From contig JAQUQW010000001.1 of NCBI GenBank assembly GCA_028716245.1, forward strand, positions 168,793 through 232,792: a DNA stretch of 64,000 bases, read 5' to 3'. Origin of the DNA: Candidatus Omnitrophota bacterium (lineage in GTDB: Bacteria; Omnitrophota; Gorgyraeia; Gygaellales; Profunditerraquicolaceae). This document shows, piece by piece, positions 13,641 through 55,092 of this stretch; within the stretch, counting starts at the first letter, position 1, and the number at the start of each line of letters is the position of its first letter. The position numbers were made by a program, and so were the translations under genes. The notes beneath the pieces were generated by a model. The model saw nothing but the letters and a program-made list of their open reading frames with translations, had not been told where the DNA came from and did no database searches.

Positions 13641-13644
13641 ATCG

Positions 13645-14115: not shown

Positions 14116-14202
14116 ATAGTTCCCGCCTCAAATTATTCGGCGGGATTAATTCGCGCATTAACTTACTCACACTGTCGTGTTCGTAAGTTAAGCGCTCATT
14201 AA

Positions 14203-16299: not shown

Positions 16300-16306
16300 A
16301 AAAACA

Positions 16307-16357
16307 CACCCCGCGCTTATAAGGTATTGCGCGGGTGTGCCCTTAGGGGCAAGGAGG
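16307..16357 (+). repeat. GC-hairpin repeat element (full copy) upstream of tuf
   Basis: caCCCCGCGC-ttataaggtatt-GCGCGGG-tgtGCCCttagGGGC-AAGGAGG, then ATG at 16365. Confidence 0.85.
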
Positions 16358-16364
16358 ATAAGAA

Positions 16365-17567: not shown

Positions 17568-17570
17568 ACA

Positions 17571-17876
17571 ATGAATACGCAAAAGATTCGCATTAAATTA
17601 AAAGCCTATGATCACCGGCTTTTAGATCAGGCAGTTATCGAGATCGTGGATACCGTTAAGCGCACCGGGGCTAAGATTTCCGGCCCCGTGCCGCTTCCCA
17701 CAAAAAGGGAGATTTATACGGTGCTGCGTTCGGTGCACGTTGATAAAAAATCACGTGAACAGTTTGATTTATCTACCCATAAACGCCTTATTGACATCTT
17801 TGAACCTACAGCTAAGACCATCGATTCATTAAGGAAATTAAACCTGCCTGCAGGAGTGGACGTAGAGATCAAGTAG
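17571..17876 (+). CDS. rpsJ: 30S ribosomal protein S10
   Basis: [16 protein letters not shown] motif. Confidence 0.95.
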
Positions 17877-17899
17877 TAAATCAAAGACGGATAAATTAA

Positions 17900-18535
17900 A
17901 TGATTGGTTTGATTGGTAAAAAAATTGGAATGACTCAGGTGTTTGCCTCGGATAACAGCCAGGTTGGGGTTACGGCTATCCAGGCCGGGCCTTGCCCGAT
18001 CCTGAGGGTTATGGATAAGAATATCCAATTGGGTTTTGATTTGGCAAAAGAAAAAAGTGTAAAGAAGCCGCAATTGGGGCTTTATAAAAAATTAAATATT
18101 GCTCCGCGTAAGGTGATTAAAGATATTTCAAAAGAAGCTAATGTTGAATATAAAGTGGGGGATGAGCTTAAAGTTGATCTTTTTGCCGAAGGCGATTTTG
18201 TGGATGTCCGCGGGACTTCCATTGGAAAAAGTTTCCAGGGTGGTATGAAGCGTTGGCATTGGAAGGGTGGTCCGAGAACCCACGGTTCAACTTCGCACCG
18301 CCGGGTTGGCTCCATTGGTTCCAGCACTACTCCCGGCCGTGTCTTTAGGGGGCATCATATGCCCGGGCACATGGGCGCCAAAAACGCAACGGTACAAAAC
18401 TTAAAAGTGATCAAAGTAGATTTAGAAAATAATCTTTTGTTGGTTGAGGGAGGGGTTCCCGGATTTAAAAATGGGTATCTAGTAGTTACCAAATCTTTTA
18501 AAAAGAAAGCAAAGAAAGCGGCAGTGAAAAAATAA
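17900..18535 (+). CDS. rplC: 50S ribosomal protein L3
   Basis: S10 operon order and sequence. Confidence 0.95.
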
Positions 18536-18536
18536 T

Positions 18537-19181
18537 ATGTTTACCTTACCCGTATATAATAGCCAAGGCGCGGAAGTTGAGACGATAAAACTCGATGCCG
18601 CAATTTTTGACGCAAGCCTGAATACCAATAGCTTGCATCAGGCTATTGAAGGTTACCGGGCTAACCAGAGAAAAGGATTGGCTTCAACTAAGACCCGCGG
18701 CGAAGTTTCCGGAGGCGGTAAGAAACCCTGGAAGCAAAAGGGGACAGGGCGTGCCCGCGTAGGTTCCACGCGTTCTCCTCTTTGGAGGCATGGCGGGGTA
18801 GTTTTTGGCCCGCATCCGCGCGATTTTTCTTATGATGTCCCGCAAAAAATCAAGGCCGCGGCTTTAAAAACAAGTTTAAATCTTAAGCTCAAAGAAAATA
18901 ATTTTGTGGTCTTGGATGATTTTAAAATCGATGCGCCCAAGACTAAGGAGGCGGTAAAGGTATTTACTAATTTAAAATTATTTTCCGCAAAAGATAAAAA
19001 AATAAAAAAGGTTTTATTCTTAACGCATAAACTGGATGGCCAATTAAAAGTGTCCTTAAAGAATATTGGTTTCTTAACGGTAAATTTGGCTTCTGACTGC
19101 CATGCTTACGAAGTAATGAATAATCAAAAGCTGCTGATCACTAAAGCCGGATTAACGGATTTGACTAAGAGGTTAAAGTAA
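18537..19181 (+). CDS. rplD: 50S ribosomal protein L4
   Basis: S10 operon order and sequence. Confidence 0.93.
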   Translation: MFTLPVYNSQGAEVETIKLDAAIFDASLNTNSLHQAIEGYRANQRKGLASTKTRGEVSGGGKKPWKQKGTGRARVGSTRSPLWRHGGVVFGPHPRDFSYDVPQKIKAAALKTSLNLKLKENNFVVLDDFKIDAPKTKEAVKVFTNLKLFSAKDKKIKKVLFLTHKLDGQLKVSLKNIGFLTVNLASDCHAYEVMNNQKLLITKAGLTDLTKRLK

Positions 19182-19459
19182 TGACCGCAATTACCGCGAT
19201 AATTAAAGCACTTTTACAGACTGAAAAATCAAGCACCTATTTGCCTAAAGGCAAGTATCTTTTTTTGGTAGATAATTCTGCGAATAAGATCCAGATTAAA
19301 AGAGCCGTGGAGCAGGCTTATAAAGTTAAGGTTAAGGACGTCAATACCTTTGTTTCTATGGGTAAACTTAAAAGGGTAAGGCATCAATTGGGACGCACAT
19401 CCGACACGAAAAAAGCCGTAGTTACTTTAGTGGCCGGGCAAAAAATAGAGGTAGCATAA
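19181..19459 (+). CDS. rplW: 50S ribosomal protein L23
   Basis: S10 operon order and sequence. Confidence 0.9.
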
Positions 19460-19460
19460 T

Positions 19461-20297
19461 ATGGGGATCATTAAATTTAAACCGACAACACCAAGCCGCA
19501 GGCATATGAGCGGGCCGGATTTTTCCGAGATCACTAAGAATAAACCGGAGCGTTCCTTGCTGGTCGCGCTTAAGAAAACCGGCGGAAGAAATTCTTACGG
19601 CCGGATCACGACCCGCCATATCGGCGGCGGGCACAAGCGCATGCTGCGGATAATTGATTTTAAACGCAACATCTACGATCAGCCGGCAAAGGTTATTGCC
19701 ATTGAATATGACCCTAACCGTTCCGCCAGGATTGCTTTGGTTGAATACCCAGATAAGCGCAAGAGCTATATTATTGCTCCCTTGGGGCTTAATGTGGGAG
19801 ATATGGTTATTGCCAGTGATCAGAAAGATATTGAAATTAAAATCGGGAATTGCCTTCTTCTGCGTAATATTCCTTCCGGTACCTTGATTCATAATATTGA
19901 GTTATTTAAGGGCAAGGGCGGCCAAATTGTGCGCGGGGCAGGAACCAGCGCCCAGATTATGGCTAAAGAGGCGGATATGGCGCATATCCGATTGCCTTCC
20001 GGAGAGGTCAGGTTAGTAAGTTTAGATTGTCATGCTACTATTGGACAGATCGGTAATATCGATCATGACGCGATTGTTTTAGGCAAAGCCGGCAAGAGCC
20101 GCTGGCTGGGGATTAAACCTTCAGTAAGAGGAGTAGTAATGAATCCGTTTGACCATCCTCACGGCGGCGGAGAAGGCAAAAGCGGGCAGGGCAATCCGCA
20201 TCCGGTTACTCCCTGGGGCAAGCCGACTAAAGGTTATCGTACCAGGAATCGTAATAAGTATTCTAATAAATTTATCGTTAAAAGAAGGAAGCCATAA
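19461..20297 (+). CDS. rplB: 50S ribosomal protein L2
   Basis: Conserved L2 motifs ([14 protein letters not shown]). Confidence 0.97.
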
Positions 20298-20299
20298 TT

Positions 20300-20587
20300 A
20301 TGCCGCGCTCACTGAAAAAAGGACCGTACGTGGAGGAAAGTTTATTAAAAAAGATAGAAAAGCAGACCAAAGCCGGATTGCGCCAGGCAATTAAAACCTG
20401 GAGCAGGCGCTCGACGATCCTGCCGGATTTTGTGGGATTGACCTTTGCGGTTTACGACGGCAAAAAGCACGTTCCGGTTTTTATTACCGAAAATATGGTC
20501 GGCCATAAATTAGGGGAATTTTCCCCTTCCAGGATCTTCAGGAAGCACGGTGGTATTAAGGCCAAGAAAGCGCTGGAAAAGACATAA
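20300..20587 (+). CDS. rpsS: 30S ribosomal protein S19
   Basis: [10 protein letters not shown] start. Confidence 0.95.
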
Positions 20588-20588
20588 A

Positions 20589-20927
20589 ATGATTTCAAAA
20601 GCCGAAGGAAAATTTTTAAGGATTTCACCCAGCAAGGTGCGTATCGTTGCCGATCTTATCCGCGGCAAGGATGCCCTCCAGGCGCAAAGCATCCTGCTGC
20701 ATTTGAATAAAAGATCAAAAGAGTTCCTCATAAAAATATTGAAATCCGCGATCGCTAACGCTAAAGTCAAGGGTTTTGCGGCCGAGAAATTGTATATTTC
20801 CAAGATTGTTTGTAATCCCGGGCCGATGTGGAAAAGATTTAAGGCCGCTGCTTTTGGCCGGGCCGCATCAATAGTTAAGCGTACAGTACATATAAAAATT
20901 GAGTTGGATTTAAAGCCGGGGGAATAA
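20589..20927 (+). CDS. rplV: 50S ribosomal protein L22
   Basis: L22 family sequence. Start is more likely the internal ATG at 20589 (MISKAEGKF) just after the rpsS stop than the overlapping ATG at 20550. Confidence 0.9.
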   Translation: MISKAEGKFLRISPSKVRIVADLIRGKDALQAQSILLHLNKRSKEFLIKILKSAIANAKVKGFAAEKLYISKIVCNPGPMWKRFKAAAFGRAASIVKRTVHIKIELDLKPGE

Positions 20928-20930
20928 TTC

Positions 20931-21644
20931 ATGGGACATAAGGTAAGTCCGTTATTGTTAAGGATTGGTTTTATAAGGCAGTGGCATTCGCGTTGGTTTG
21001 CCAAAACCAAAGATTTCCCGCTGTTTATTCAGCAGGATTATAAGATTAGAAAATTTATTAAAAGTAAATTTAAGCAGGCAGCGATATCCAAAATTGTTAT
21101 TGAGAGGCTGGCCGAAAGGATTAAGATCCGCATATTCTCTGCCCGTCCGGGAATTATCATCGGCCGGCACGGTTCAGATATTGAGCGGCTGCGCTCGGAT
21201 TTAAATGGCTTAGTTAAAAATGAGCTGTCCATCGATATCCAGGAAGTAAATAATCCCGCCTGGGATGCGCAATTAGTCGCAGAAAACATTGCCTTACAGC
21301 AAGAGAAGAGGATTGCTTTTCGCCGGGCGGTAAAAAGAGCGATGGAGCAGTCAATTCAGGCCGGAGTAAAAGGTATCCGGGTCAGCTGTTCCGGCCGGCT
21401 TAACGGCGCGGAGATGGGCCGTAAAGAAACATATAAAATCGGCAAAGTTCCTTTGCAAACTTTACGTGCGGATATTGATTACGGTTTTGCCGAAGCCCTT
21501 ACTACCTACGGTTTAATCGGAGTAAAGGTTTGGATTTATAAAGGCGATATATTAGGAAAGCAGTTTGTTCAGGAGGAAGTTAAAAGCGCTCAAGCCGGCG
21601 GACAGCCTAAAGAAGCTTTTAGGCCCGCAGGACAACAGCGTTAG
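20931..21644 (+). CDS. rpsC: 30S ribosomal protein S3
   Basis: MGHKVSPLLLRIG start, KH domain. Confidence 0.95.
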   Translation: MGHKVSPLLLRIGFIRQWHSRWFAKTKDFPLFIQQDYKIRKFIKSKFKQAAISKIVIERLAERIKIRIFSARPGIIIGRHGSDIERLRSDLNGLVKNELSIDIQEVNNPAWDAQLVAENIALQQEKRIAFRRAVKRAMEQSIQAGVKGIRVSCSGRLNGAEMGRKETYKIGKVPLQTLRADIDYGFAEALTTYGLIGVKVWIYKGDILGKQFVQEEVKSAQAGGQPKEAFRPAGQQR

Positions 21645-21712
21645 AGCAAGGAGCTTGCCCTACCTCGTAAACTCGGTAGGACATCGCTAGATAAAGGATT
21701 AAAGGTGCTCGA

Positions 21713-22129
21713 ATGGTTTTAATGCCCAAGAGGGTTAAATATCGTAAATTGCAAAAAGGCCAGAGGCGCGGGATAGCCACTACCGGCTCAACCTTGGCTT
21801 TCGGAGAATTTGGTTTAAAGTCTCTGGATAACGGATGGATTAAAAATACGCAAATTGAAGCTGTGCGCGTGATTTTGGCGCGCCAGCTGCATAAAGGCGG
21901 TAAATTATGGATCAGGATATTTCCGGATAAATCCATAACCAAGAAACCGGCAGAAGTGCGTATGGGCAAAGGTAAAGGCGACCTCGATCATTGGGTTGCC
22001 GTAGTGAAAAGAGGGCGCATACTTTTTGAATTAGGGGGAGTTCCACAGGAGTATGCTAAATCCTGTTTCCGCCTGGCAGCCTATAAGATGCCGCTGCGCA
22101 CAAAATTTGTAACCAGGGTGCATAAATAA
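21713..22129 (+). CDS. rplP: 50S ribosomal protein L16
   Basis: [13 protein letters not shown] motif. The start could instead be ATG 21722. Confidence 0.93.
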
Positions 22130-22130
22130 C

Positions 22131-22322
22131 ATGAAACCGCAGGAATTAAGAGATTTACCGACAGGTGAGTTGTTAGAGAAAGAAAAGGCTCTTTATGCCG
22201 AACTGTCTAAGTTAAATACGCAGCGTTACACGGGCAATGTGGAGAAGCCGCATCGGTTTGCGCTGTTAAAGAAGGATATCGCCCGCATTAGGACAGTCTT
22301 AAAGGGAAAGAAAGATAAATAA
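22131..22322 (+). CDS. rpmC: 50S ribosomal protein L29
   Basis: 63 aa; position between rplP and rpsQ. Confidence 0.9.
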   Translation: MKPQELRDLPTGELLEKEKALYAELSKLNTQRYTGNVEKPHRFALLKKDIARIRTVLKGKKDK

Positions 22323-22323
22323 T

Positions 22324-22605
22324 ATGGGTAAACAAAAAGAATTCATCGGGATAGTAACCAGCGACAAGATGCAGAAAACCGTGGTGGTCAAGACCATGCA
22401 TTTAACCAGGCATGCCAAATATTCTAAAACAGTCAAGCTGCGCAGTAAGTTTAAGGCCCACGATGAAAAGGGTATCGCCAAGCTTGGGGATATGGTGAGC
22501 ATAGCCGAAACCCGCCCCCTGTCAAAAGATAAGCGTTTTATAGTCAAGGCAGTGCTTAAGAAAGCCGCAAGTATGCATTTGGTAAATCCTGAGGAGATTG
22601 CATAA
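22324..22605 (+). CDS. rpsQ: 30S ribosomal protein S17
   Basis: Order and sequence. Confidence 0.93.
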   Translation: MGKQKEFIGIVTSDKMQKTVVVKTMHLTRHAKYSKTVKLRSKFKAHDEKGIAKLGDMVSIAETRPLSKDKRFIVKAVLKKAASMHLVNPEEIA

Positions 22606-22974
22606 ATGCTTCAATTACGCAGTATTTTGGATGTGGCCGACAATACCGGAGCCCGCAAGGCTTCGCTAATCTGTGTATTGGGAAAAATGGGCAGTTTTAA
22701 TGCAGATATCGGAGATGTGGTAAGGGTTAACATCAAGGAATCTATACCCGGGGCCACGGTGAAAAAAGGAGAGATGGCCAGGGCGGTAATCGTACGTACC
22801 AGGCGGGATATCCGAAGGCCGGATGGCTCCATATTGCGTTTTGACCGTAATGCCATCGTAATCCTTGACGATAAAGATAACCCCAGGGGCACGCGCGTCT
22901 TTGGCCCGGTTGCCCGCGAGTTAAGGGATAAGAATTTTAATAAAATAATTTCTTTAGCGCCAGAGGTAATTTAA
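22606..22974 (+). CDS. rplN: 50S ribosomal protein L14
   Basis: [16 protein letters not shown] start. Confidence 0.95.
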
Positions 22975-23285
22975 TGCAAAAAATCAAGAAGAATGATATT
23001 GTCCAGATAATTAAAGGCAAGGATAAAGGTAAGCAGGGAAAAGTAATCAGTGTTATTGAGGGTAACCGGCGCGCCATAGTTGAAGGCTTAAACCTTGCCA
23101 AGAAACACAAGCGCCAGAGCCGTCAGGACCAGAAGGGCGGGATAATTTCAATAGAGATGCCCGTCAGCGTAGCTAACCTTATGGTTTTCTGCAAGCATTG
23201 TTCAAAGGCTTCCCGTACCGGTTCAATAATTTTAAAAGACGGAACAAAATCAAGATTTTGTAAAGCTTGTAAAGAGGCGCTATAA
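22974..23285 (+). CDS. rplX: 50S ribosomal protein L24
   Basis: KOW motif IKKNDIVQIIKGKDKGKQGKV. Confidence 0.93.
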   Translation: MQKIKKNDIVQIIKGKDKGKQGKVISVIEGNRRAIVEGLNLAKKHKRQSRQDQKGGIISIEMPVSVANLMVFCKHCSKASRTGSIILKDGTKSRFCKACKEAL

Positions 23286-23286
23286 T

Positions 23287-23844
23287 ATGATACCTAGGCT
23301 ATTAGAAAAATACCGTAATGAAATTGTTCCCAAGTTAATGGAAGATTTTAAGCTTAAGAATAAGATGGCCGTGCCCGTAGTCGATAAGATCGTCGTCAAC
23401 ATGGGTATTGGCGAAGGCACTCAGGATGTTAAAATGTTGGAGAAATCCGTGGATGAGCTGGGCAATATTACCGGCCAGAAACCGATTATCCGCCGGGCAA
23501 AAAAGGCCATTGCTAATTTCAAAGTCAGGCAAGGCCAGGCGGTCGGCGCCAAGGTTACCTTAAGAAGGGCGATGATGTATGAGTTTATGGACCGTTTGCT
23601 GAATATCGCTCTCCCCCGTATCCGTGATTTCCGCGGTGTTTCCCCGGATTCATTTGATCAAGGTTATAATTATACCCTGGGTTTAAGCGAGCAGATTATC
23701 TTTCCGGAGATTGAGTACGATAAAATTACCCGCACTCAGGGGATGGATATTACTTTTGTGATCAAGAATGCCAAGAATACCGAGCAGGCAAGAAGTTTAC
23801 TCCGTTATTTTGGCATGCCCTTTAAGGCTAAGGAAGAAAAATAA
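23287..23844 (+). CDS. rplE: 50S ribosomal protein L5
   Basis: Order and sequence. Confidence 0.95.
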   Translation: MIPRLLEKYRNEIVPKLMEDFKLKNKMAVPVVDKIVVNMGIGEGTQDVKMLEKSVDELGNITGQKPIIRRAKKAIANFKVRQGQAVGAKVTLRRAMMYEFMDRLLNIALPRIRDFRGVSPDSFDQGYNYTLGLSEQIIFPEIEYDKITRTQGMDITFVIKNAKNTEQARSLLRYFGMPFKAKEEK

Positions 23845-23847
23845 AAA

Positions 23848-24033
23848 ATGGCAAAGAATTCACAAATCGCAAGATGGAAAAGAAAACCTAAGTTTTCAAC
23901 TCGTAAATACAATCGTTGTTCAATTTGCGGCAGAAGCGGCGGTTACTTAAGAAGGTTCCAGCTTTGCCGTATTTGTTTTAGAGAGCTGGTTTGGCAGGGG
24001 CTTATCCCCGGCGTTAAAAAAGCCAGCTGGTAG
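23848..24033 (+). CDS. rpsN: 30S ribosomal protein S14, type Z (Zn-binding, 61 aa)
   Basis: CSICGRSGG...CRIC zinc ribbon. Confidence 0.93.
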
Positions 24034-24037
24034 ATTA

Positions 24038-24087
24038 CACCCCGCGCTTATAATGAATTGCGCGGGTGTGCCCGTGTGGGCTAGGAG
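24038..24087 (+). repeat. GC-hairpin repeat element (full copy) upstream of rpsH
   Basis: caCCCCGCGC-ttataatgaatt-GCGCGGG-tgtGCCCgtgtGGGC-tAGGAG, then ATG at 24093. Confidence 0.85.
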
Positions 24088-24092
24088 AATAA

Positions 24093-24488
24093 ATGTCCAG
24101 GACAGATTTAATTGCAGATGTTTTTACAATCATCCGTAACGCCATATTGATTAAACAGGATACCGTGGATCTTCCGGCTTCCAGCAACATCAAATCGATT
24201 ATGGCTATTCTAAAAAAGAATGAGTATATCGATAATTTTAAACTGATCGAAGATAAAAAGCAGGGATTGGTGAGGGTTTATTTAAAATATACCGCCGGAA
24301 AATCAGCTATCCGTAATATTAAACGGGTCTCCAGGCCCGGTTTAAGGGTTTATGCCCGGGGAAAAAAGATTCCCACCGTTTTACGCGGCAGGGGGCTGGC
24401 GATTGTTTCAACTTCCAAGGGTGTAATTACCGATAAGGAAGCCAGAGAGTTGGGCGTGGGTGGCGAAGTTATTGGTTATATTTGGTAA
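24093..24488 (+). CDS. rpsH: 30S ribosomal protein S8
   Basis: MSRTDLIADVFTIIRNA start. Confidence 0.95.
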   Translation: MSRTDLIADVFTIIRNAILIKQDTVDLPASSNIKSIMAILKKNEYIDNFKLIEDKKQGLVRVYLKYTAGKSAIRNIKRVSRPGLRVYARGKKIPTVLRGRGLAIVSTSKGVITDKEARELGVGGEVIGYIW

Positions 24489-24495
24489 GGAATGG

Positions 24496-24540
24496 CACCC
24501 CGCGCTTATAAGGTATTGCGCGGGTGTCCTCTAATTGAGG
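24496..24540 (+). repeat. GC-hairpin repeat element (variant hairpin 2) upstream of rplF
   Basis: caCCCCGCGC-ttataaggtatt-GCGCGGG-tgtCCTCtaattGAGG. Hairpin 2 is replaced by CCTC/GAGG, whose 3' arm doubles as the SD; ATG at 24550. Confidence 0.8.
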
Positions 24541-24549
24541 AAAAAATAA

Positions 24550-25095
24550 ATGTCTAGGATTGGAAAAAAACCGGTAACAATACCAAAGGATGTCAAGATT
24601 GAAGTTAAGGATAGGGAGGTTTTTGTCCAGGGCCCTAAAGGTAAGCTTAGCCGTAAGTTAACTGACCGGATTAATGTCGAGATTAAAGATACCCAGCTTT
24701 TGGTTACCAGGGTAGCCGATACTAAGGTGGATAAATCCATGCATGGATTATACCGGGCCCTGATCGTGAATATGATTAAGGGTGTAACCGAAGGTTACCT
24801 TAAGGAGTTGGAGATCATCGGCGTGGGATTTAAAGCCGCGGTAGCCGGGGATAAATTAAACCTGGCTTTAGGTTTTTCCCATCCGGTAAATTTTGCCATT
24901 CCCGCCGGAATTAAGATTGAAACTCCTAAGCCTACGCAGCTGGTCATCAGAGGCATTGATAAGGAGTTAATCGGAGAAGTGGCAACTGAAATCCGCGCAA
25001 TTTTTCCTCCTGAACCTTATAAGGGCAAAGGGATTCGTTTTGTAGGGGAGCATGTAAAGAAAAAGATCGGAAAAGCGCAGGCAACCGGTAAATAA
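24550..25095 (+). CDS. rplF: 50S ribosomal protein L6
   Basis: MSRIGKKPVTIP start. Confidence 0.95.
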   Translation: MSRIGKKPVTIPKDVKIEVKDREVFVQGPKGKLSRKLTDRINVEIKDTQLLVTRVADTKVDKSMHGLYRALIVNMIKGVTEGYLKELEIIGVGFKAAVAGDKLNLALGFSHPVNFAIPAGIKIETPKPTQLVIRGIDKELIGEVATEIRAIFPPEPYKGKGIRFVGEHVKKKIGKAQATGK

Positions 25096-29428: not shown

Positions 29429-29542
29429 ATGAAAGTTAAAGCGTCGATCCGTAAAATTTGCGATAAGTGTAAAATAATAAAAAGAAGAGGGGTAGTGCGG
29501 GTTATTTGCGTAACTACTAAACATAAACAGAGGCAAGGATAA
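29429..29542 (+). CDS. rpmJ: 50S ribosomal protein L36 (37 aa, Zn-ribbon C-x2-C-x12-C-x4-H)
   Basis: Hand-translated as [37 protein letters not shown]; it is not in the ORF track because it is <60 aa. Confidence 0.85.
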
Positions 29543-29585
29543 CACCCCGCGCTAGGCAGCGCAGTGTGCACTTGTGATCAAGGAG
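29543..29585 (+). repeat. degenerate GC-hairpin repeat element upstream of rpsM
   Basis: caCCCCGCGC-taggca-GCGCag-tgtGCaCttgtGatC-AAGGAG. The right arm of stem 1 and both hairpin-2 arms are mutated. Confidence 0.65.
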
Positions 29586-32673: not shown

Positions 32674-33849
32674 ATGAAAATAGATACTCGGCTTGCTGAG
32701 CGCCTAAAAAAAATACATCCTTCCTCGACATTAGCGATAACCTCTAAAGCTAAAAAGCTTAAAAGCGAAGGCAAGGATATTGTTAATTTTGCCGCCGGTG
32801 AGCCGGATTTTGACACGCCGGATTTTATAAAGGACGCGGCAATTGCGGCAATTACTTCCGGATTCACCAAATATACCCCCACCACCGGTATCCCCGAACT
32901 AAAAAAGCTCATTTGCCAGAAATTCAAAAAAGATAATTCATTAGAATATTCTCCGGACCAGATTATAGTTTCTAACGGGGCAAAGCATAGTATTTATAAC
33001 GCCCTGATGGTGCTTTTAAATCGCGCTGACGAAGTGCTTATCCCTTTGCCCTATTGGGTTAGTTATCCTGAAATGACCAGCCTTTGTGAGGCAAGCGCCC
33101 GTTTCATCAAGATATCCGCGGCAAGCAATTTTAAAATTTCCGCAAAGGAACTCCTTAAGCATATTAGCCCTAAAACCAAAGTACTTATTCTTAACAACCC
33201 GTCAAATCCTACCGGTTCAGTTTATGATAGGCAGGAGCTTGAGGAGATAGCTAAAATCTGCGTGGATAAGAATATTTTTGTAATTAGCGATGAGATTTAT
33301 GAAAAGATTACTTTTGACGGCCTAAAACATAATTCAATTGCCAGCTTCAATAAAGATATTTATAACCTGACCATTACGGTTAACGGCCTGTCCAAAAGCC
33401 ATTCCATGACCGGCTGGCGTATCGGTTATCTGGGCGCGCCAGGCGATATTGCCAATGCCATTTCAAACTTACAGGATCACTCAACCTCTAATCCTAATTC
33501 CATCGCCCAGAAAGCAGCGGTAGCCGCCTTAAGCGCCCCGGAAGATTTTACGCATAAATTGTGCCAGGAGTTTTCTAAAAGAAGGGATTACCTGGCTTTA
33601 AGGTTAAAGGGAATTAAGAATTTAAGTTTTTCTCTGCCGCAAGGCGCGTTTTATGTGTTTTGCGATATTTCTAAAACCGGCCTTGATTCTTTGACTTTTT
33701 CCAAGCGCCTGCTTGATGAAGAATATGTCAGCCTTATTCCCGGAATCAGTTTTGGCATGGATGACCATATCAGGATAAGTTTTGCCACAAGTATGGAAGA
33801 ATTGCAGAAAGGCATGGATAGGTTGGAAAAGTGGGTAACAAAATTATGA
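32674..33849 (+). CDS. class I PLP-dependent aminotransferase (aspartate aminotransferase-like)
   Basis: SKSHSMTGWRIGY PLP-lysine motif; 391 aa. It starts only 17 nt after rplQ. Confidence 0.8.
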   Translation: MKIDTRLAERLKKIHPSSTLAITSKAKKLKSEGKDIVNFAAGEPDFDTPDFIKDAAIAAITSGFTKYTPTTGIPELKKLICQKFKKDNSLEYSPDQIIVSNGAKHSIYNALMVLLNRADEVLIPLPYWVSYPEMTSLCEASARFIKISAASNFKISAKELLKHISPKTKVLILNNPSNPTGSVYDRQELEEIAKICVDKNIFVISDEIYEKITFDGLKHNSIASFNKDIYNLTITVNGLSKSHSMTGWRIGYLGAPGDIANAISNLQDHSTSNPNSIAQKAAVAALSAPEDFTHKLCQEFSKRRDYLALRLKGIKNLSFSLPQGAFYVFCDISKTGLDSLTFSKRLLDEEYVSLIPGISFGMDDHIRISFATSMEELQKGMDRLEKWVTKL

Positions 33850-35102
33850 ACCAAGCGACTATAGCTGAAAAAATATTAAGCCGGCATGCGGGCAAAACTT
33901 TGCGCGCGGGAGATTTTGCGGTCTGCAAAATTGATTTTGCTTTTGGCCAGGATGGAACATCCTCGATAATCATCGACCGGATTAAAGATTTGGGGGTAAA
34001 AAAATTAAGAACTAAGTTTTGTATGGTAATTGACCATAGCGCCCCCAGCCCCAGCGAAGGGGTATCCCGGGTGCATCAGAAGATGCGCGATTTTTCGCAG
34101 GATTTTAACACGGAAATTTTCGATATCGGCTGCGGGGTTTGCCATCAGGTCATCCCTGAATCGGGAAATGTTTTGCCCGGAGATTTAGTTTTAGGGGCAG
34201 ATTCCCATACTTGTACTTACGGGGCCCTGGGAGCATTCTCCACGGGTGTGGGGTCTACGGACTTGGCGATAGCTTTAGCTACGGGAAAAAATTGGTTTAA
34301 AGTCCCGGCAACCGTAAAAATTATCGTTACGGGAAAACTTCCCAAAGGAGTTTTTGCTAAGGATATAATTTTGTATATAATCGGCAAATTAAAAAGTGAC
34401 GGGGCTACGTATAAAGCAGTTGAATTTTACGGCCCGGTGATTAATAATATGGGTATGGATGGCCGGTTCACTATTGCCAACATGCTGGTTGAGATGGGGG
34501 CAAAAACAGGTTTTTTGCCGGTCGATGCTAAAACTATTAGCTGGTTAAAATCGCGGGTTTCCGGCAAGAGGCGCATTGAAAATATTACCGCAGATAATGG
34601 CGCTCTTTATGAGAGTGTTTATGAGTTTGATATCTCTAAACTCAAGCCGATGGTTTCGATGCCGCATAGCGTAGATAATACTACGGAGGCAGAAACTTTG
34701 AAGAAGGTAAAAATAAACGAAGCTTTTTTGGGCACCTGTACTAACGGCCGGATTGATGACCTTAAGGTAGCGGCAAAAATTTTAAATAAACGCAAGGTTT
34801 CTCCGGAAGTTAAGTTGATCATTGCTCCGAGTTCCCGCAGTGTCTATCTGGAGGCTTTAAAACTTGGTTTGGTTGAGGTATTTATCAAATCCGGCGCAGT
34901 CATTGTCGCTCCGGGCTGCGGCCCTTGCGTGGGTACGCATAACGGTATTCCCAGCGATGGAGAAGTAGTGATTTCAACCGCAAACCGTAATTTTAAAGGC
35001 AGGATGGGCAACCCTTCGGCTTTTATTTATTTGGCTTCTCCGGCTACGGTGGCAGCTTCTGCGCTTAAGGGCCATATCAGTGATCCCAGAGATTATTTCT
35101 AG
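33846..35102 (+). CDS. small-type 3-isopropylmalate/homoaconitate dehydratase large subunit (LeuC/HacA family)
   Basis: Aconitase-family Fe-S cysteines (CGPCVG, CTNGR); ~420 aa archaeal-type length. ATGA overlap with the aminotransferase. Confidence 0.8.
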   Translation: MNQATIAEKILSRHAGKTLRAGDFAVCKIDFAFGQDGTSSIIIDRIKDLGVKKLRTKFCMVIDHSAPSPSEGVSRVHQKMRDFSQDFNTEIFDIGCGVCHQVIPESGNVLPGDLVLGADSHTCTYGALGAFSTGVGSTDLAIALATGKNWFKVPATVKIIVTGKLPKGVFAKDIILYIIGKLKSDGATYKAVEFYGPVINNMGMDGRFTIANMLVEMGAKTGFLPVDAKTISWLKSRVSGKRRIENITADNGALYESVYEFDISKLKPMVSMPHSVDNTTEAETLKKVKINEAFLGTCTNGRIDDLKVAAKILNKRKVSPEVKLIIAPSSRSVYLEALKLGLVEVFIKSGAVIVAPGCGPCVGTHNGIPSDGEVVISTANRNFKGRMGNPSAFIYLASPATVAASALKGHISDPRDYF

Positions 35103-35103
35103 C

Positions 35104-35202
35104 TACCCCGCGCTTAGCGAGGCACCCGACGCTAATAGGTATTGCGTCGGTGTGCGCTAGGTAGCGCAAATTGCGCGGGTGTTGTCTATGTAGACAAGGA
35201 GG
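35104..35202 (+). repeat. compound/nested GC-hairpin repeat element upstream of pilT
   Basis: The outer CCCCGCGC...GCGCGGG stem encloses an inner variant copy (CCGACGC-taataggtatt-GCGTCGG) plus a GCGCTA/TAGCGC hairpin. Hairpin 2 is TGTCTA-tg-TAGACA, followed by AGGAGG. Confidence 0.75.
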
Positions 35203-35207
35203 TATTA

Positions 35208-36254
35208 ATGGAAATTCGCGATTTGCTTTTAATGTGTATTGAAAAGGGCGCTTCGGATTTACATATTACGGAAAATGAACCGCCGATCTTACGCATTGAC
35301 GGCAGGTTATTGCGCACAGATCTGGAGAAATTAGATAAGCCGAATTTAAAGAAAATGATCCATAGTGTTCTTTCTAATTCCCAGAAAGAGGTTTTTGAGC
35401 GTGAGTTAGAACTTGATTTTTCGCTTGCCCTGCCGGGTATGGATCGTTTTCGCGTAAATGTCCATTTGCAGAAAGGCGCGGTAGAAGCGGCTTTTCGCCG
35501 TATCCCGATAGAGATACCCACCGTGGCAAAATTAGGCCTGCCGAAGATTATAAGCGATTTAGCGCGTAAGCCAAACGGTTTAGTTTTGGTAACCGGGCCT
35601 ACAGGCATGGGCAAGACCACTACCTTAGCGGCAATGATTGACCTTATCAATACCGAACGGGAATGTTTGATTACCTGTATCGAAGACCCGATCGAATTCA
35701 TCTATAACAATAAAAAGAGCGTCGTTAAACAGCGCGAGGTTTATTCGGATACGCATTCTTTTGCCGAAGCCTTGCGCCACGCCCTGCGCCAGGATCCCAA
35801 TGTTATTGTAGTCGGGGAAATGCGCGACTTAGAAACTATATCCACTGCTTTAACTGCGGCGGAAACCGGGCACCTTGTTTTAGCCACCTTGCACACGCCG
35901 GATGCCCCGCAAACCATTTCCAGGATTATCGATGTTTTCCCGCCGCATCAGCAGACCCAGGTTAAATTGCAGCTTTCGGATTGTTTGCAGGGAGTAATCT
36001 CGCAGCTTTTGCTTCCGCACGCATCAGGCAAAGGAAGGGTGCTGGCTACGGAGATTATGGTGGCAACATCCAGTATCCGCAATCTTATCCGCGAGCAGCA
36101 GATAGAGCAGATCCCGACAATGATGCAAACAGGTTTACAGTATGGCATGAATACTATGGACAGCTGCCTGAAAGATTTGACGCAAAGAGGATTGATCACT
36201 TTGGATGTGGCCATGTCTAAAGTAAAGAATAGGGAAGAGTTTAAACAACTATGA
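35208..36254 (+). CDS. pilT: PilT-like type IV pilus retraction ATPase (orphan)
   Basis: GPTGMGKTTT Walker A, DPIEF, PilT N-terminus MEIRDLL..GASDLHIT. True start is 35208 after AGGAGG. Confidence 0.8.
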   Translation: MEIRDLLLMCIEKGASDLHITENEPPILRIDGRLLRTDLEKLDKPNLKKMIHSVLSNSQKEVFERELELDFSLALPGMDRFRVNVHLQKGAVEAAFRRIPIEIPTVAKLGLPKIISDLARKPNGLVLVTGPTGMGKTTTLAAMIDLINTERECLITCIEDPIEFIYNNKKSVVKQREVYSDTHSFAEALRHALRQDPNVIVVGEMRDLETISTALTAAETGHLVLATLHTPDAPQTISRIIDVFPPHQQTQVKLQLSDCLQGVISQLLLPHASGKGRVLATEIMVATSSIRNLIREQQIEQIPTMMQTGLQYGMNTMDSCLKDLTQRGLITLDVAMSKVKNREEFKQL

Positions 36255-36751
36255 GTATTGAAGGCAAAAGCGTAAAACTCGGGGATAATATAAATACGGA
36301 TTTTATTATTTCCGGAAGGTATAAGTTTGCCATTACCGATATAAAGGAACTGGCCAAACACATCATGGAGGATATTGATCCGAATTTTCCGCAAAAGATT
36401 GTTCCGGGTAAAACCATTATTGTCGCCGGCAATAACTTTGGCATGGGCTCAAGCCGCGAACAGGCCCCGCTGGTAATCAAAGAGGCCGGGATTGTGGCGG
36501 TCCTATCCCCCCAATTCGCGCGCATATTTTTCCGCAATAGTTTTAATATCGGTCTGCCTTTAATTGAAACTGATACCAGCAAAATCGAGGAGGCCGACCA
36601 GCTGCAAATCGATTTAGATAAAGGCTTGGTAAAAAATCTAACCAAAGGCATTGATTTAGAAATTAAACCCCTGCCTAAATTCATGCAGGACCTTTTAAGC
36701 GAAGGCGGCATAATTAATTATTATAAAAAACACGGAGAACTTAAACTTTAA
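36251..36751 (+). CDS. 3-isopropylmalate/homoaconitate dehydratase small subunit (LeuD/HacB family)
   Basis: GDNINTDFIISGRYKF motif; 166 aa small type. Confidence 0.8.
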   Translation: MSIEGKSVKLGDNINTDFIISGRYKFAITDIKELAKHIMEDIDPNFPQKIVPGKTIIVAGNNFGMGSSREQAPLVIKEAGIVAVLSPQFARIFFRNSFNIGLPLIETDTSKIEEADQLQIDLDKGLVKNLTKGIDLEIKPLPKFMQDLLSEGGIINYYKKHGELKL

Positions 36752-37834
36752 ATGCAGCATAAGATAACCCTGATTCCCGGCGATGGTATTGGATATGAAG
36801 TTTCTCTTGCGGCGACTCGCTGCATCGAGGCGACAGGGGTTAATATCAAGTGGGATAATGTGCTTGCTGGTTCCGATGCCCTTGACAAAACCGGGGAGCT
36901 TCTGCCGCAGAGCGCGCTGGATTCAATTAAGAAAAATAAGGTTGCCCTTAAAGGGCCGATTACCACGCCCATTGGCACCGGATTTCGTTCGGTCAATGTG
37001 GCGATCAGGCAGGCCCTGGATCTTTATGCCTGCTTGCGCCCGGCCAAAAGTTATTTGGGGGTAAATAGCCGTTTTAAAGATATTGACCTGGTTATTGTCC
37101 GGGAAAACAGCGAAGATCTTTACGCCGGAATAGAGTTTGAAGAGGGCAAACCTGAAACTAAAAACCTGATCGCCCAGATACAAAAAGACACCAAAAGGCT
37201 GATCCGCCCGGATTCCGGGATAAGCATCAAACCAATATCTAAATTTGCCTCAGAGAGGATTGTAAGATTTGCCTTTGAGTATGCTTTAAAAAATAAACGC
37301 AAAAAAGTTACTTGCGTGCATAAGGCAAATATTATGAAATTTACCGACGGCCTGTTTTTAAAGGTTGCCCGGGAAGTTGCCCAAAAGTATACCGGAAAAA
37401 TAATTTTTGAGGAAGCAATTGTAGATAATATGTGTATGCAGCTAGTCCAGAAGCCGCATAATTATGATGTTTTGGTGTTGCCTAATCTTTACGGGGATAT
37501 TATTTCTGATCTTTGCGCCGGGCTTATCGGCGGCCTAGGAATTGCGCCCGGGGCAAATATCGGTACGGATCTGGCGGTTTTTGAGGCTGTGCATGGTTCT
37601 GCTCCAAAATATAAAGGGAAGAATAAAGTCAATCCCACTGCGATGATCTTATCAGGAGTTTTAATGCTGCGCTATATTAATGAAGAAGAAGCGGCAGACA
37701 GATTAGAAGAAGCGGTAAAACAGGTGATTGTCGAAGGAAAATTTGTAACCTATGATTTAAAAGCTGACCCGCTTGATCCGGGCGCTGTTGGTACCGCGCA
37801 GATGGCCGAGGCTATCATTGGCAAGTTAAAATAA
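36752..37834 (+). CDS. isocitrate/isopropylmalate dehydrogenase family, IDH-like
   Basis: SVNVAIRQALDLYACLRP closely resembles the IDH signature (NVALRQELDLYICLRP). GDGIG and Mg ligands present. Confidence 0.75.
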   Translation: MQHKITLIPGDGIGYEVSLAATRCIEATGVNIKWDNVLAGSDALDKTGELLPQSALDSIKKNKVALKGPITTPIGTGFRSVNVAIRQALDLYACLRPAKSYLGVNSRFKDIDLVIVRENSEDLYAGIEFEEGKPETKNLIAQIQKDTKRLIRPDSGISIKPISKFASERIVRFAFEYALKNKRKKVTCVHKANIMKFTDGLFLKVAREVAQKYTGKIIFEEAIVDNMCMQLVQKPHNYDVLVLPNLYGDIISDLCAGLIGGLGIAPGANIGTDLAVFEAVHGSAPKYKGKNKVNPTAMILSGVLMLRYINEEEAADRLEEAVKQVIVEGKFVTYDLKADPLDPGAVGTAQMAEAIIGKLK

Positions 37835-45958: not shown

Positions 45959-45964
45959 GGTTAC

Positions 45965-46190
45965 AAGGTTAACGTTACTGGTCCAGGGAAGGCCGTGTGA
46001 ATCGGTCGCAGTTCCCGCTGCTGTAAAAGAGGTCGAAATTCTCTTGAATATTTGCCACTGGTTTAACCAAAGCCGGGAAGGCAGGAGAAGAGTAGGATAA
46101 ACTCTTAAGTCAGAAGACCTGACCAGGAACAGATGTCCAACAATTACTTTTAAACCCGCGGACAGGTTTAAAAGGGTTAGAAAACAGGGA
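45965..46190 (+). promoter_or_regulatory. cobalamin (B12) riboswitch aptamer
   Basis: AGGGAAGGCCGTGTGAATCGGTCGCAGTTCCCGCTGCTGTAA core and downstream GCCACTGG B12-box-like segment; upstream of a TonB-dependent receptor. Confidence 0.75.
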
Positions 46191-46260: not shown

Positions 46261-48318
46261 ATGTTTTGCAATAGGTCGGCAGCAAGATTTTTAGTTGCGC
46301 TATCAGTTGTTTTGGGAACTTTTGTTTTTTCTTATGCAGATGATGTGGATTTGGAAAAAATTGTGGTAACTCCGTATCGTTATGGCGAAAGTTTAGCTAA
46401 AACAGCGGCGGATGTTACTGTAGTGACAAAAGGAGATATAGAAGGATCAAATTCTCACAATGTGGTTGATGTATTTAGGTCAATACCCGGGGTTACAGTG
46501 CGGGATTATTTTGGCAACGGAACTCAAGCAACAGTAGATATAGGAGGCTTTGGAGAGCAGGGGCCACTTAACGTATTAGTATTAGTTGACGGCCGGCGCG
46601 CAAACAATGTTGACTTAAGCGGCGTTAACTGGAATCAAATTCCGCTTGATGAAGTAGAGCGTATCGAAGTTGTTCGCGGAGGTTCTGGCGCAGTGCTATA
46701 CGGTGATAATGCATCTAGTGGCGTAGTCAATATTATTACCAAAAAGGGTTCAGGAAAACCAAAAGTAGAACTAGAAACTGAATACGGCAGCTATGATATG
46801 AACAAAGAAAAATTATCTCTAGGTGGTAAAGTTAACAATAAGCTTTCTTATTGGTTTAGCCTTGGACGCGATTCTACTAATGGCTATCGCAATAACAGCT
46901 TTAACAAAGATAGTGATTTTGCTTCTAAAATCGCTTATGATTTTAATGATATGCTGTCTGCACATTTTGACTCGGGATTTCATGCTTCAACTTATGGTCT
47001 GCCTGGGGCATTGTTTCAAAGTGATATAGATCAGCATAGCAGGAGGTATGCCAGATTCGGCAATGATCATGCTAATGGTAAAGACTACTATTTTGTTCTT
47101 GGGCCAAAACTCCAATTTCTAGGATTGGGAAATCTTAATTTGGATTTTAGTTACCGTCAGAATGATGTTGATTCATATTATCTGACCTCAAACCATCTTG
47201 CTTACAGGAATAGTATTGAAACTTTTGGGATGACGCCGAAGTATACGTTAGACAATAGCATTTTTAATCACGATAATAAATTCATCGCCGGGCTCGATTT
47301 TTACCGTTCTCTATATAGTTCAAGATCCTGCCCTATGTCTGATGATAGTACAGTAAATCAATATACGGATATTCATAAGAATTCATTAGGAAGCTACCTG
47401 CAGGATGAGTTTTCTATTCTTAAACAGTTAACTCTAGTAGGTGGCTACCGCCATGAATTTGCTGATTACACATTTGCTTATCATGATAATACCGGATTTA
47501 ACCCCGACCAAGATACTAAAGTAAAATTTAATATGGATTCTTTTAACAGCGGCCTTACCTATACTTATAAAGATGATTCAAATGTTTTTTTAAATGTGAA
47601 CAGAAGCTTCCGTTTTCCCGAAGTAGATGAGTTTACCTATATGGATGCAACGTCTTTTCAAACGCTGCTTAATACTGATCTTAAGCCGCAATCTTCGATA
47701 GATTACCAAATTGGTTTGCGGCATAAATTTTCTGACCGTTTTAAGGGTAACTTATCATTATTTAGAATGAATGTTAAAAATGAGTTGTATCTTAATGCCA
47801 CGGATACTTGGGATGGCTTCGAGTGGAATAGTAAGAATGAAAATTATGATAGAACTGTTCATGAAGGCCTGGAATCATCATTGGATGCCAAGCTTAATGA
47901 TTGGGTAACATTATTCGGAAATTATACTTTTACCAATGCCTATTTTGATGGTGGACAATATAGCGGGAGCCAGATACCTTTGGTATCTAAGCATAAAGGA
48001 AGCGTTGGATTAAAATTCGCATTACCAATGGATATATCCTTAAATATTATTGGTACTTATCTAGGTCCTAGATATTATTTAAACGATCAGGCAAACGCTT
48101 ATTCTAAGTTAAATGGGTATATGGTTGCCGACACCAATTTGTCTTGGCATTGTAAGGATTTTAAAGTCACATTTGGAATTAATAATCTTTTTGATAAGCA
48201 ATATTCGGAATATGCCGGAGTGTTGCAAGGATTTTCTGTGGGGCATGCCGTAGGTGATAAATTCTATTATCCTAATCCGGGAAGAAATTTTAGTTTAAAA
48301 GTTAACTATACTTTTTAA
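46261..48318 (+). CDS. TonB-dependent outer membrane receptor (BtuB-like)
   Basis: Signal peptide, TonB-box-like DLEKIVVT, plug plus barrel length, C-terminal aromatic residue; under the B12 riboswitch. Confidence 0.85.
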   Translation: MFCNRSAARFLVALSVVLGTFVFSYADDVDLEKIVVTPYRYGESLAKTAADVTVVTKGDIEGSNSHNVVDVFRSIPGVTVRDYFGNGTQATVDIGGFGEQGPLNVLVLVDGRRANNVDLSGVNWNQIPLDEVERIEVVRGGSGAVLYGDNASSGVVNIITKKGSGKPKVELETEYGSYDMNKEKLSLGGKVNNKLSYWFSLGRDSTNGYRNNSFNKDSDFASKIAYDFNDMLSAHFDSGFHASTYGLPGALFQSDIDQHSRRYARFGNDHANGKDYYFVLGPKLQFLGLGNLNLDFSYRQNDVDSYYLTSNHLAYRNSIETFGMTPKYTLDNSIFNHDNKFIAGLDFYRSLYSSRSCPMSDDSTVNQYTDIHKNSLGSYLQDEFSILKQLTLVGGYRHEFADYTFAYHDNTGFNPDQDTKVKFNMDSFNSGLTYTYKDDSNVFLNVNRSFRFPEVDEFTYMDATSFQTLLNTDLKPQSSIDYQIGLRHKFSDRFKGNLSLFRMNVKNELYLNATDTWDGFEWNSKNENYDRTVHEGLESSLDAKLNDWVTLFGNYTFTNAYFDGGQYSGSQIPLVSKHKGSVGLKFALPMDISLNIIGTYLGPRYYLNDQANAYSKLNGYMVADTNLSWHCKDFKVTFGINNLFDKQYSEYAGVLQGFSVGHAVGDKFYYPNPGRNFSLKVNYTF

Positions 48319-54983: not shown

Positions 54984-55041
54984 CTTTAGGTATTATTAGT
55001 AAGCTTAATAAGAGATGGTGAAATTATTATTAATTCAGTAG

Positions 55042-55092
55042 CACCCCGCGCTTATAAGGAATTGCGCGGGTGTGCCCTTGTGGGCAAGGAGG
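55042..55092 (+). repeat. GC-hairpin repeat element (full copy) upstream of cysH
   Basis: caCCCCGCGC-ttataaggaatt-GCGCGGG-tgtGCCCttgtGGGC-AAGGAGG, then ATG at 55099. Confidence 0.85.

Follow-up and report, generated by a model that had tools for sequence, protein, structure and literature searches.

A nested copy of a small structured repeat at the ribosome-binding site of pilT in Candidatus Omnitrophota

What occupies the 105 nucleotides (nt) between an aconitase-family gene and pilT in a Candidatus Omnitrophota genome, and how did it come to be there? The spacer lies in a 64,000-nt stretch of contig JAQUQW010000001.1 (assembly GCA_028716245.1, positions 168,793 to 232,792 of the forward strand), which was analyzed at its full length and is termed the window. 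Positions refer to the window unless one of the other compared loci, designated by L numbers, is named. An earlier note, made from the letters alone, described the spacer as a compound version of a hairpin repeat with an inner variant copy. The pilT copy consists of one complete unit inside the loop of another, between loop positions G8 and A9. The explanation adopted here, in which our confidence is about even, is that it is a compound member of a clade-wide family of structured repeats that would act as an mRNA leader and would multiply by copying or recombination. The observations comprise the anatomy of the element, the covariation of its stems, its docking at the ribosome-binding site (RBS), its recurrent nesting and the speed with which units are gained and lost.

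All of the elements that the earlier note listed for the pilT copy are present where it had placed them. The compound element begins 1-3 nt past the stop codon of the upstream leuC-like gene, and pilT starts with the ATG at 35208 rather than at 35209. The spacer reads, in order, CTA, CCCCGCGC, TTAGCGAGG, CA-C-CCGACGC, TAATAGGTATT, GCGTCGG, TGT and GCGCTAGGTAGCGC, followed by AAATT, GCGCGGG, TGT, TGTCTA-TG-TAGACA, AGGAGG, TATTA and ATG. The individual features are as follows.

33831-35102, + strand: upstream aconitase-family (leuC-like) gene ending in TAG (35100-35102); Pfam Aconitase is found on the orthologous upstream genes.
35104-35113, + strand: 5' arm of outer hairpin 1, TA-CCCCGCGC (CCCCGCGC at 35106-35113), aligned with 25 other compound copies.
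35114-35122, + strand: 5' junction strand TTAGCGAGG, counterpart of the first 8 nt of the canonical loop (TTATAAGG).
35123-35153, + strand: inner hairpin 1, CA-C-CCGACGC / TAATAGGTATT / GCGTCGG-TGT, with CCGACGC at 35126-35132, the loop TAATAGGTATT at 35133-35143 and GCGTCGG at 35144-35150; a covariance-model match whose stem covaries.
35154-35167, + strand: inner hairpin 2, GCGCT-AGGT-AGCGC (GCGCTA/TAGCGC; GCGCTAGGTAGCGC).
35168-35172, + strand: 3' junction strand AAATT, counterpart of the last 4 nt of the canonical loop (AATT).
35173-35182, + strand: 3' arm of outer hairpin 1, GCGCGGG (35173-35179), and TGT.
35183-35196, + strand: outer, RBS-proximal hairpin 2, TGTCTA-TG-TAGACA, pair probability 0.997.
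35196-35210, + strand: Shine-Dalgarno sequence AAGGAGG (35196-35202), a 5-nt spacer and the pilT ATG (35208-35210).

The outer arms are 59 nt apart, and the nested copy would give a three-way junction. The pattern CCCGCGC-N34-64-GCGCGGG has 1 match in the window with 0.02 expected, and the closer spacing CCCGCGC-N3-33-GCGCGGG has 6 matches, all on the + strand, with 0.01 expected. The inner copy is matched by a covariance model for hairpin 1 at 35121-35154 with 26 bits and E = 5e-6, and its type of hairpin 2 is also present in the inner units of L006, L054, L115, L123 and L147. The equivalence of TTAGCGAGG and TTATAAGG was assigned from an alignment to the simple copy at the orthologous site of genome STD1_64 and from columns 12-20 of the compound alignment.

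The basic unit of the family is about 47 nt long. It reads (A)CAC-CCCGCGC / TTATAAGGWATT / GCGCGGG-TGT, followed by hairpin 2, AAGGAGG and the start codon, and its consensus is ACACCCCGCGCTTATAAGGWATTGCGCGGGTGTG. Hairpin 1 has a covarying, G+C-rich stem of 7-10 base pairs and a conserved 12-nt loop, TTATAAGGWATT, that is near-invariant except at positions 7 (G/T) and 9 (A/T). Hairpin 2, which is stacked directly on hairpin 1, was found in 130 of 132 copies. It is formed by many unrelated stems, mostly with TTNT loops; the commonest is GCCC-TTGT-GGGC, and CCTC-TAATT-GAGG, GTC-CTACT-GAC and others also occur. When one genome per species was scanned, the motif was detected in 104 stretches from about 45 assemblies, nearly all labelled Candidatus Omnitrophota (a few carry the depositor label Planctomycetales), and it therefore belongs to a clade and not to a single genome.

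The covariance model for hairpin 1 yielded 122 copies at E <= 0.01 in 772 kb. In the alignment of these copies, 95.9% of the cells are standard pairs, compensatory changes are found in 7 of the 10 pairs, and none of 500 shuffles equaled the result. The stem variants include CCCGGCGC/GCGCCGG, CCTGGCGC/GCGCCAG, CCCTGCGC/GCGCAGG, CCCGAGC/GCTCGG and the CCGACGC/GCGTCGG of the window. Compensatory pairs of the kind expected for a conserved structured RNA are thus present, and pairing within single-stranded DNA would give an equal signal. G-U pairs outnumber A-C mismatches in the stems (40 vs 17), so pairing of the sense strand is favored, although sense-strand DNA would act similarly.

No described family was recovered for the unit. 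In a search of the whole window against Rfam 15 at the gathering score, only one cobalamin riboswitch and 2 tRNAs passed, and at E <= 10 the compound copy and one simple copy gave chance-level matches alone. Neither literature searches on stem-loops or RNA motifs in Omnitrophota nor one on the sequence of the motif returned anything matching. The canonical motif has 0 matches in a viral contig collection, with no sign of phage carriage. The family is one of small structured repeats that is apparently undescribed.

Nesting is not confined to pilT. The earlier note had held that the nested reading would fail if no other nested copies existed genome-wide and folding gave no structural support; such copies recur in many genomes and metagenomes at the same loop position. 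Compound copies with a shared plan are found in L006, L054, L025, L066, L069, L002/L064 and L089. The plan consists of the outer 5' arm, T(T)A..AGG, a full inner unit (hairpin 1, TGT, hairpin 2, A), (A)AATT, the outer 3' arm, TGT, hairpin 2 and the RBS. The loop is always split at one position, TTATAAGG|AATT. In L054 the two halves of the outer loop are exactly TTATAAGG and AATT, which places the insert between G8 and A9 of the canonical loop. When metagenomes were scanned for the 3' junction, 56 stretches were recovered; about 45 of them are true compound copies, before many different genes.

When 26 two-level copies were aligned, 97.1% of the cells were paired, 16 of 25 pairs were compensatory and 0 of 500 shuffles were equal, statistics that are affected by the picking of compound copies for arm complementarity (the parser demanded at least 6 of 7 complementary positions per arm pair). 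RNAalifold independently gives the same three-way junction for the compound alignment. In the compound copies of L006, L054, L066 and L153 the nested structure is the minimum-free-energy state, with z-scores of -2.8 to -4.5. Three-level nests are present in L153, L155 and L143; L132 has three levels and two tandem units, L133 has more, and these deep nests fold perfectly. In L153 the arm variants pair by level, with CCCCGCGT/ACGCGGG in the inner two levels and CCCCGCGC/GCGCGGG in the outermost.

The architectures can be written with two symbols, X for the 5' arm with TTATAAGG and Y for AATT with the 3' arm, TGT and hairpin 2. In this notation a simple unit becomes XY, two units in tandem XYXY and a nest XXYY, and the boundaries of a single inserted segment are unambiguous (GG|CACC...A|AATT). 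Arrays at L160 (1375-1662) and L133 (103-532) contain identical 35-nt 3' half-units (AAATT-GCGCGGG-TRT-TCGCCAGGTGGCGA) repeated 3-5 times, and the L160 array has three 5' arms (X) and four 3' units (Y). This hints that half-units may duplicate separately, which is given little weight because short-read assembly may miscount identical repeats. Duplication of a half-unit would be an alternative route to nesting.

The units are docked at genes in a regular manner. About 95% of the copies are in the sense orientation, a start codon lies 18-30 nt past hairpin 1 in 90 of 132 matches, and hairpin 2 is separated from the Shine-Dalgarno sequence by 0-2 nt. In 67 of the 132 matches, the stop codon of an upstream reading frame that runs in the same direction falls in the motif or no more than 10 nt away, and the unit often occupies the whole gap from the preceding stop codon to the next gene. 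A Pfam search of 100 downstream proteins gave 105 families, including EF-Tu and the ribosomal proteins S8, L6, L7/L12, L20, S3, S20 and L35 as well as solute-binding proteins, PilT-type ATPases, SMC, PEPCK, glutamine synthetase III, CdhD, OmpH and P-II. Downstream N-termini additionally show DnaK, MetK, AtpE and others. The downstream genes are diverse, and many are of expected high expression (EF-Tu, ribosomal proteins, DnaK, PEPCK, OmpH). None of the six copies scanned is overlapped by a terminator-like site; in place of a run of T, hairpin 1 has TGTG on its 3' side and hairpin 2 has AAGGAGG.

The history of the pilT copy was reconstructed by comparison with relatives. Contig JAQURC010000002.1 of STD1_64 is a syntenic counterpart of the window (88-92% DNA identity). 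At pilT it carries a simple unit, and the window has 47 extra nt exactly at the point where the loop is split; the outer loop has also changed (TTATAAGG to TTAGCGAGG) and hairpin 2 is different. Among other close PilT relatives (93-95% protein identity), the spacer holds a simple unit in L163 and no unit in L161 and L164, where it is 14 and 12 nt long, in contrast to the compound copy in the window. The pilT spacer of L102 is simple as well. Five further sites differ between the window and STD1_64.

rpsL-rpsG spacer: present in the window, absent in STD1_64.
rplV-rpsC spacer: absent in the window, present in STD1_64.
Gene at window position 57217: absent in the window, present in STD1_64.
Lipoyl-domain gene near 40070: absent in the window, present in STD1_64.
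Gene at 55099: present in the window, absent in STD1_64.

These five differences are clean, with the unit directly 5' of GGAGG. Copies before rplL, tuf, rpsH and rplF are common to both genomes. Taken over the differing and the shared sites, the two genomes, which are related at roughly the level of a genus, disagree at about half. Such fast turnover is what the earlier note's suggestion of mobility or recombination between copies leads one to expect. The target-site duplications that the note had proposed to look for were sought at the filled and empty site pairs and at the nest boundaries; neither a duplication nor a shared target sequence was detected, and the nest boundaries of the pilT copy (GG|CACC...GCA|AATT) have no duplication and no microhomology.

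The inner unit at pilT is of a distinct type, with a CCGACGC/GCGTCGG stem, a YAATAGGTATT loop and GCGCTAGGTAGCGC as hairpin 2. This type recurs, always nested, in L069, L113, L114, L115, L123, L140 and L147. Positions 11550-11632 of L147 are 98.8% identical over 83 nt to window positions 35120-35202, from the inner unit through the RBS. The L147 block is located between 2-oxoacid:ferredoxin-oxidoreductase-like and ferritin-like genes and has nothing else in common with the window. A near-identical 83-nt block at a non-orthologous locus means that the pilT composite is itself a dispersed repeat. Together with the differences from STD1_64 outside the insert, it makes a ready-made composite that replaced the resident unit, or was copied into the pilT spacer, the simplest history. 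The composite thus most likely came as a pre-formed block by cassette replacement or recombination. The element-within-element arrangement of the earlier note stands insofar as one unit lies inside the loop of another; a fresh insertion, in which a unit would have jumped into a resident simple copy at pilT, is unlikely.

Two observations concern the surroundings of this copy. The pilT gene is flanked by genes for the large (leuC-like, Aconitase) and small (leuD-like, Aconitase_C) subunits of an isopropylmalate-isomerase-type enzyme, with an Iso_dh gene next (33831-37834), and the leuC-pilT-leuD order is kept in all close relatives examined, including L161, L163 and L164. The PilT protein of the window is 97% identical to the Omnitrophota PilT P0001, and an exact-sequence look-up of it returned no record. 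In addition, the Logan contig L162, whose pilT is 95% identical, starts (1-23) at TAGGAATTGCCAAGGAGG, an apparent loop fragment joined directly to the RBS. Either part of the unit has been deleted there or the assembly breaks within the repeat.

Direct-repeat, pattern and covariance-model searches gave 8-9 copies of the family in the window, all on the + strand. With the covariance model for hairpin 1, six canonical copies score 57-62 bits; the model also detects a variant at 5207-5240 and, weakly, a remnant at 29541-29568. The copies other than that at pilT are as follows.

5207-5296, + strand: tandem pair before rplL (downstream Pfam Ribosomal_L12).
5207-5240, + strand: first unit of the rplL pair, with the variant loop TTAGCGGAATT.
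5251-5296, + strand: second unit of the rplL pair, canonical, with stem CCCCGCGT/ACGCGGG and hairpin 2 GTC-CTACT-GAC.
13587-13633, + strand: simple unit in the rpsL-rpsG spacer; the orthologous STD1_64 site is without a unit.
16305-16351, + strand: simple unit in the fusA-tuf spacer; a copy precedes tuf in 5 other loci too, and the site is conserved in at least 5 other genomes.
24036-24082, + strand: simple unit before rpsH, with the loop TTATAATGAATT; a copy precedes rpsH in 5 other loci too.
24494-24541, + strand: simple unit in the rpsH-rplF spacer, with hairpin 2 CCTC-TAATT-GAGG.
29541-29585, + strand: degenerate remnant before rpsM, ACACCCCGCGCTAGGCAGCGCAGTGTG with a short hairpin and the RBS; a weak assignment (14.6 bits, E = 0.036).
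55040-55086, + strand: simple unit before the gene starting at 55099; the orthologous STD1_64 site is without a unit.

The loop of the first rplL unit, TTAGCGGAATT, has the same unusual TTAGCG start as the outer loop at pilT (TTAGCGAGG...AAATT), and the rplL site has three architectures among relatives: tandem (the window and L014), single (L051) and compound (L114). In the rpsM remnant, the start of a 5' arm is fused directly to an inner-type hairpin 2 (GCGCTAGGCAGCGC) within ACACCCCGCGCTAGGCAGCGCAGTGTG, so that it looks like a collapsed compound copy. A near-consensus sigma-70-type site, TTGACA-17-TACAAT (11 of 12 matches), is located at 16180-16208, within the 3'-terminal part of fusA and about 97 nt before the tuf copy. 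The cobalamin riboswitch (Rfam RF00174, 83.7 bits) is at 45962-46141 on the + strand, upstream of an open reading frame of 685 amino acids (46261-48318).

A second palindrome, (R)CCTGCCTGCCGGCAGGCAGG, of about 20 nt and perfect, is dispersed through the motif-bearing genomes. It was found inserted within the hairpin-1 3' arm (GCGCG^GG) or the hairpin 2 of the main repeat at L017 4737, L079 6111, L080 2388, L082 1053, L013 7131 and L150 4040, and free-standing at L008 823, L034 4693, L094 3865 and L121 31. It may be a further miniature insertion element.

What, then, could the repeat do, and what makes it multiply? The leader function and the copying mechanism that we infer would operate as follows. 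The unit would be transcribed as part of the mRNA of the downstream gene and would act in cis as a standard leader that insulates the RBS from upstream coding RNA. It would give stable helices at the 5' side of a cistron and the 3' side of the preceding one, and might protect or mark the 5' side. The A/U-rich, RBS-like loop (UAAGGA) might serve as a binding site for the 30S subunit or for a protein or other factor specific to the clade. Units would multiply by copy-and-paste or by recombination among copies, and the pilT composite would be a pre-formed block that replaced a simple unit.

Several results weigh against this explanation, in addition to the way in which the compound copies were picked. 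The nested fold of the window copy is predicted at -36.2 kcal/mol, 11 kcal/mol worse than its minimum-free-energy fold at -47.3 kcal/mol, and the pair probabilities of its outer stem are 0.1-0.2. The outer stem competes with a helix formed by GCUUAGC (the end of the outer arm and the unusual TTAGCG loop start) and GCUAGGU (the 5' half of inner hairpin 2); in a longer context, AAAUUGCGCG pairs with early pilT codons, and the RBS of the window is partly paired in the predicted ensemble. Inner hairpin 1 (0.99) and outer hairpin 2 have predicted pair probabilities above 0.99. The structural support that the earlier note had looked for in folding is thus found at the level of the family but is not clear for the pilT copy. 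The variation at loop positions 7 (G/T) and 9 (A/T) weakens the idea of an RBS mimic. Close relatives lack the element at pilT and at further genes, so it is dispensable at individual loci. High-scoring antisense copies lie between two tRNA genes in four genomes (L001 2750-2784, L051 1491-1525, L068 697-731 and L074 7142-7176), and an antisense, divergent copy is found in the rpsL-rpsG spacer of L075. Sense copies directly 5' of a tRNA gene in L089 and L091, like the antisense copies between tRNA genes, do not fit a role in translation. Terminator-like hairpins alone follow the unit at L053 7608, L073 1563 and L099 83. These three and L008 523 are stand-alone units with no RBS or reading frame on the 3' side and with terminator-like hairpins next; they could be small RNAs made up of the motif only, or stranded copies.

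A largely selfish repeat would account equally well for the dispensability, the antisense copies and the pace at which units are gained and lost. The purely selfish version, which we regard as possible but on the unlikely side, holds that the unit is a miniature mobile DNA element of the REP, REPIN or MITE kind whose hairpins are recognized as single-stranded DNA by an enzyme acting in trans; a nest would be an insertion into an exposed loop, and position and orientation would reflect insertion preference and purging, with no RNA function. Clean presence and absence with fixed unit ends between genomes of about 90% identity agree with such an element, as do near-identical copies at unrelated loci, the common nests and tandem arrays, the copies in antisense or non-coding contexts and the second palindrome family (CCTGCCTGCCGGCAGGCAGG), dispersed in the same genomes and inserted inside units. 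On the other hand, neither a target-site duplication nor a common flanking target was found at the gene and loop sites, and no transposase is next to any copy; a tblastn search of 1.12 Mb of loci with an approximate IS200 TnpA query gave no match, which is a weak test. The sense orientation of about 95% of the copies at 0-2 nt from the RBS, the retention of copies at the same ribosomal protein and tuf junctions across many species and the absence of the GTAG/CGTC end tags that define REPs also count against it. By analogy with REP elements, however, the leader and selfish readings are non-exclusive. A bolder combination of the two, which we hold to be unlikely, is a miniature self-propagating module that would dock at RBSs, install a structured translation leader and re-enter its own RBS-like loop (UAAGGA) to give Russian-doll nests; it would be driven by a clade-specific enzyme or an RNA-guided process and co-opted to boost the most-needed genes.

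Two regulatory explanations fare worse. It is very doubtful that the unit is a site for a global regulator of the CsrA/RsmA type, in which the GGA of the hairpin-1 loop and the GGA of the Shine-Dalgarno sequence would be bridged by a dimer and nested or tandem copies would add sites as in the CsrB and RsmZ sponge RNAs. The loop AUAAGGAAU does resemble the CsrA selection consensus, ACARGGAUG, the spacing from GGA to GGA is about 30 nt, and terminator-like hairpins follow the stand-alone units of L053, L073 and L099. Among 83 distinct copies, however, the loop core is GGA in 47 and GGU (GGT in DNA) in 34, and T replaces the first G (UGA/UGU) in 14; the GGU and UGA/UGU cores would disrupt CsrA binding, and we know of no precedent for repression of EF-Tu and ribosomal proteins by CsrA. 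The least probable explanation, to which we attach almost no credence, is a signal at the DNA level, either a promoter or a palindromic operator bound by a transcription factor that would control tRNAs and highly expressed genes. Within the loop lies TATAAG or TATAAT, and the unit precedes tRNA genes (L089, L091) and many highly expressed genes. Yet none of the 31 promoter-like sigma-70 sites in 5100-25000 (-35 and -10 hexamers 16-18 nt apart) overlaps any of the six copies scanned there, there is no conserved -35 element, and the sequence 5' of the unit is in many cases the end of the preceding coding sequence. The compensatory arm changes and the tolerance of G-U pairs are unexpected for a double-stranded operator, the unit occurs in spacers of 50-60 nt within conserved ribosomal protein operons, and nesting splits the putative -10 element.

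Other candidates were set aside. A pseudoknot between the hairpin-1 loop (AAGG) and CCUU of hairpin 2 was dropped because the hairpin-2 sequences vary freely without matching changes in the loop. An integron attC site, a DNA uptake sequence and a sigma-54 promoter were rejected by inspection on the grounds of sequence, orientation and housekeeping context.

Next to nothing has been described of gene-expression signals in the Omnitrophota, which are uncultured and for the most part ultra-small. A 47-nt module before EF-Tu, many ribosomal proteins, chaperones and genes of central metabolism in dozens of species is a candidate lineage-specific expression signal. Its strict orientation, RBS docking, quick turnover and recursive nesting make it a compact natural system for the spread of small structured repeats with no obvious transposase. 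In practical terms, the repeat breaks assemblies and shifts the calls of start codons and gene boundaries in metagenome-assembled genomes.

Among known systems, the closest are the REP, BIME and REPIN elements of the Proteobacteria, which are short, G+C-rich hairpin repeats of 20-50 nt that are intergenic and transcribed (PMC3733652, PMC3116915). They and the Omnitrophota unit are alike in their many copies, clusters, insertion in or beside one another and differing presence between relatives. An effect on mRNA stability, exerted by the hairpins in the RNA, is ascribed to REPs (PMC3733652, PMC3116915) and proposed for the Omnitrophota unit. REPs occur in both orientations, for the most part downstream of genes and frequently in inverted pairs; they bear a GTAG or CGTC tag that is unpaired, and RAYT genes are associated with them (PMC3733652, PMC3116915), whereas the Omnitrophota unit is a two-hairpin module with a 12-nt loop, docked at the RBS in about 95% sense orientation and with one fixed nesting position. 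The unit consensus ACACCCCGCGCTTATAAGGWATTGCGCGGGTGTG contains neither GTAG nor CGTC nor a complement, and CGTC/GACG occurs just as a stem variant of the inner copy. The placement also differs from that of REPs; in 90 of 132 copies the unit points the same way as a gene whose start codon follows at 18-30 nt, and multiple copies are tandem or nested direct repeats and not inverted ones. No duplicated flank as in MITEs was found, and the two ends of the unit (CACC... and ...hairpin 2-A) do not form an inverted repeat.

The small dispersed repeats (SDRs) of Nostoc and related cyanobacteria, reportedly described by Elhai et al. in 2008, are said to be hairpin-forming, 21-27 nt long and found also inside other repeats or structured regions, with insertion inferred from orthologous loci. 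They resemble the Omnitrophota unit as very small hairpin repeats but belong to another phylum, have another sequence and are not tied to the RBS, a comparison that serves as a lead alone. The intercistronic RNase III processing hairpins of phage T7 and the 5' stabilizers of ompA and of Bacillus subtilis aprE/STAB-SD affect mRNA stability and downstream translation. Like the Omnitrophota unit, they are standardized hairpins between cistrons and immediately 5' of the next RBS, an analogy of position alone with no sequence relationship. Hairpin 1, with its 10 base pairs, is short for a classical RNase III substrate, and to our knowledge none of these hairpins nests in itself or turns over between related genomes. 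The ribosomal protein leaders of Rfam are likewise structured elements in the leaders of ribosomal protein genes, but they are gene-specific mimics of rRNA sites, in contrast to the one sequence that serves more than 100 gene families here. The family behaves most like the REP, BIME and REPIN elements and the cyanobacterial small dispersed repeats, yet departs from the REP definitions in tag and placement. Among small structured intergenic repeats, it is unusual in its docking at the RBS and in its recursive nesting at a single loop position.

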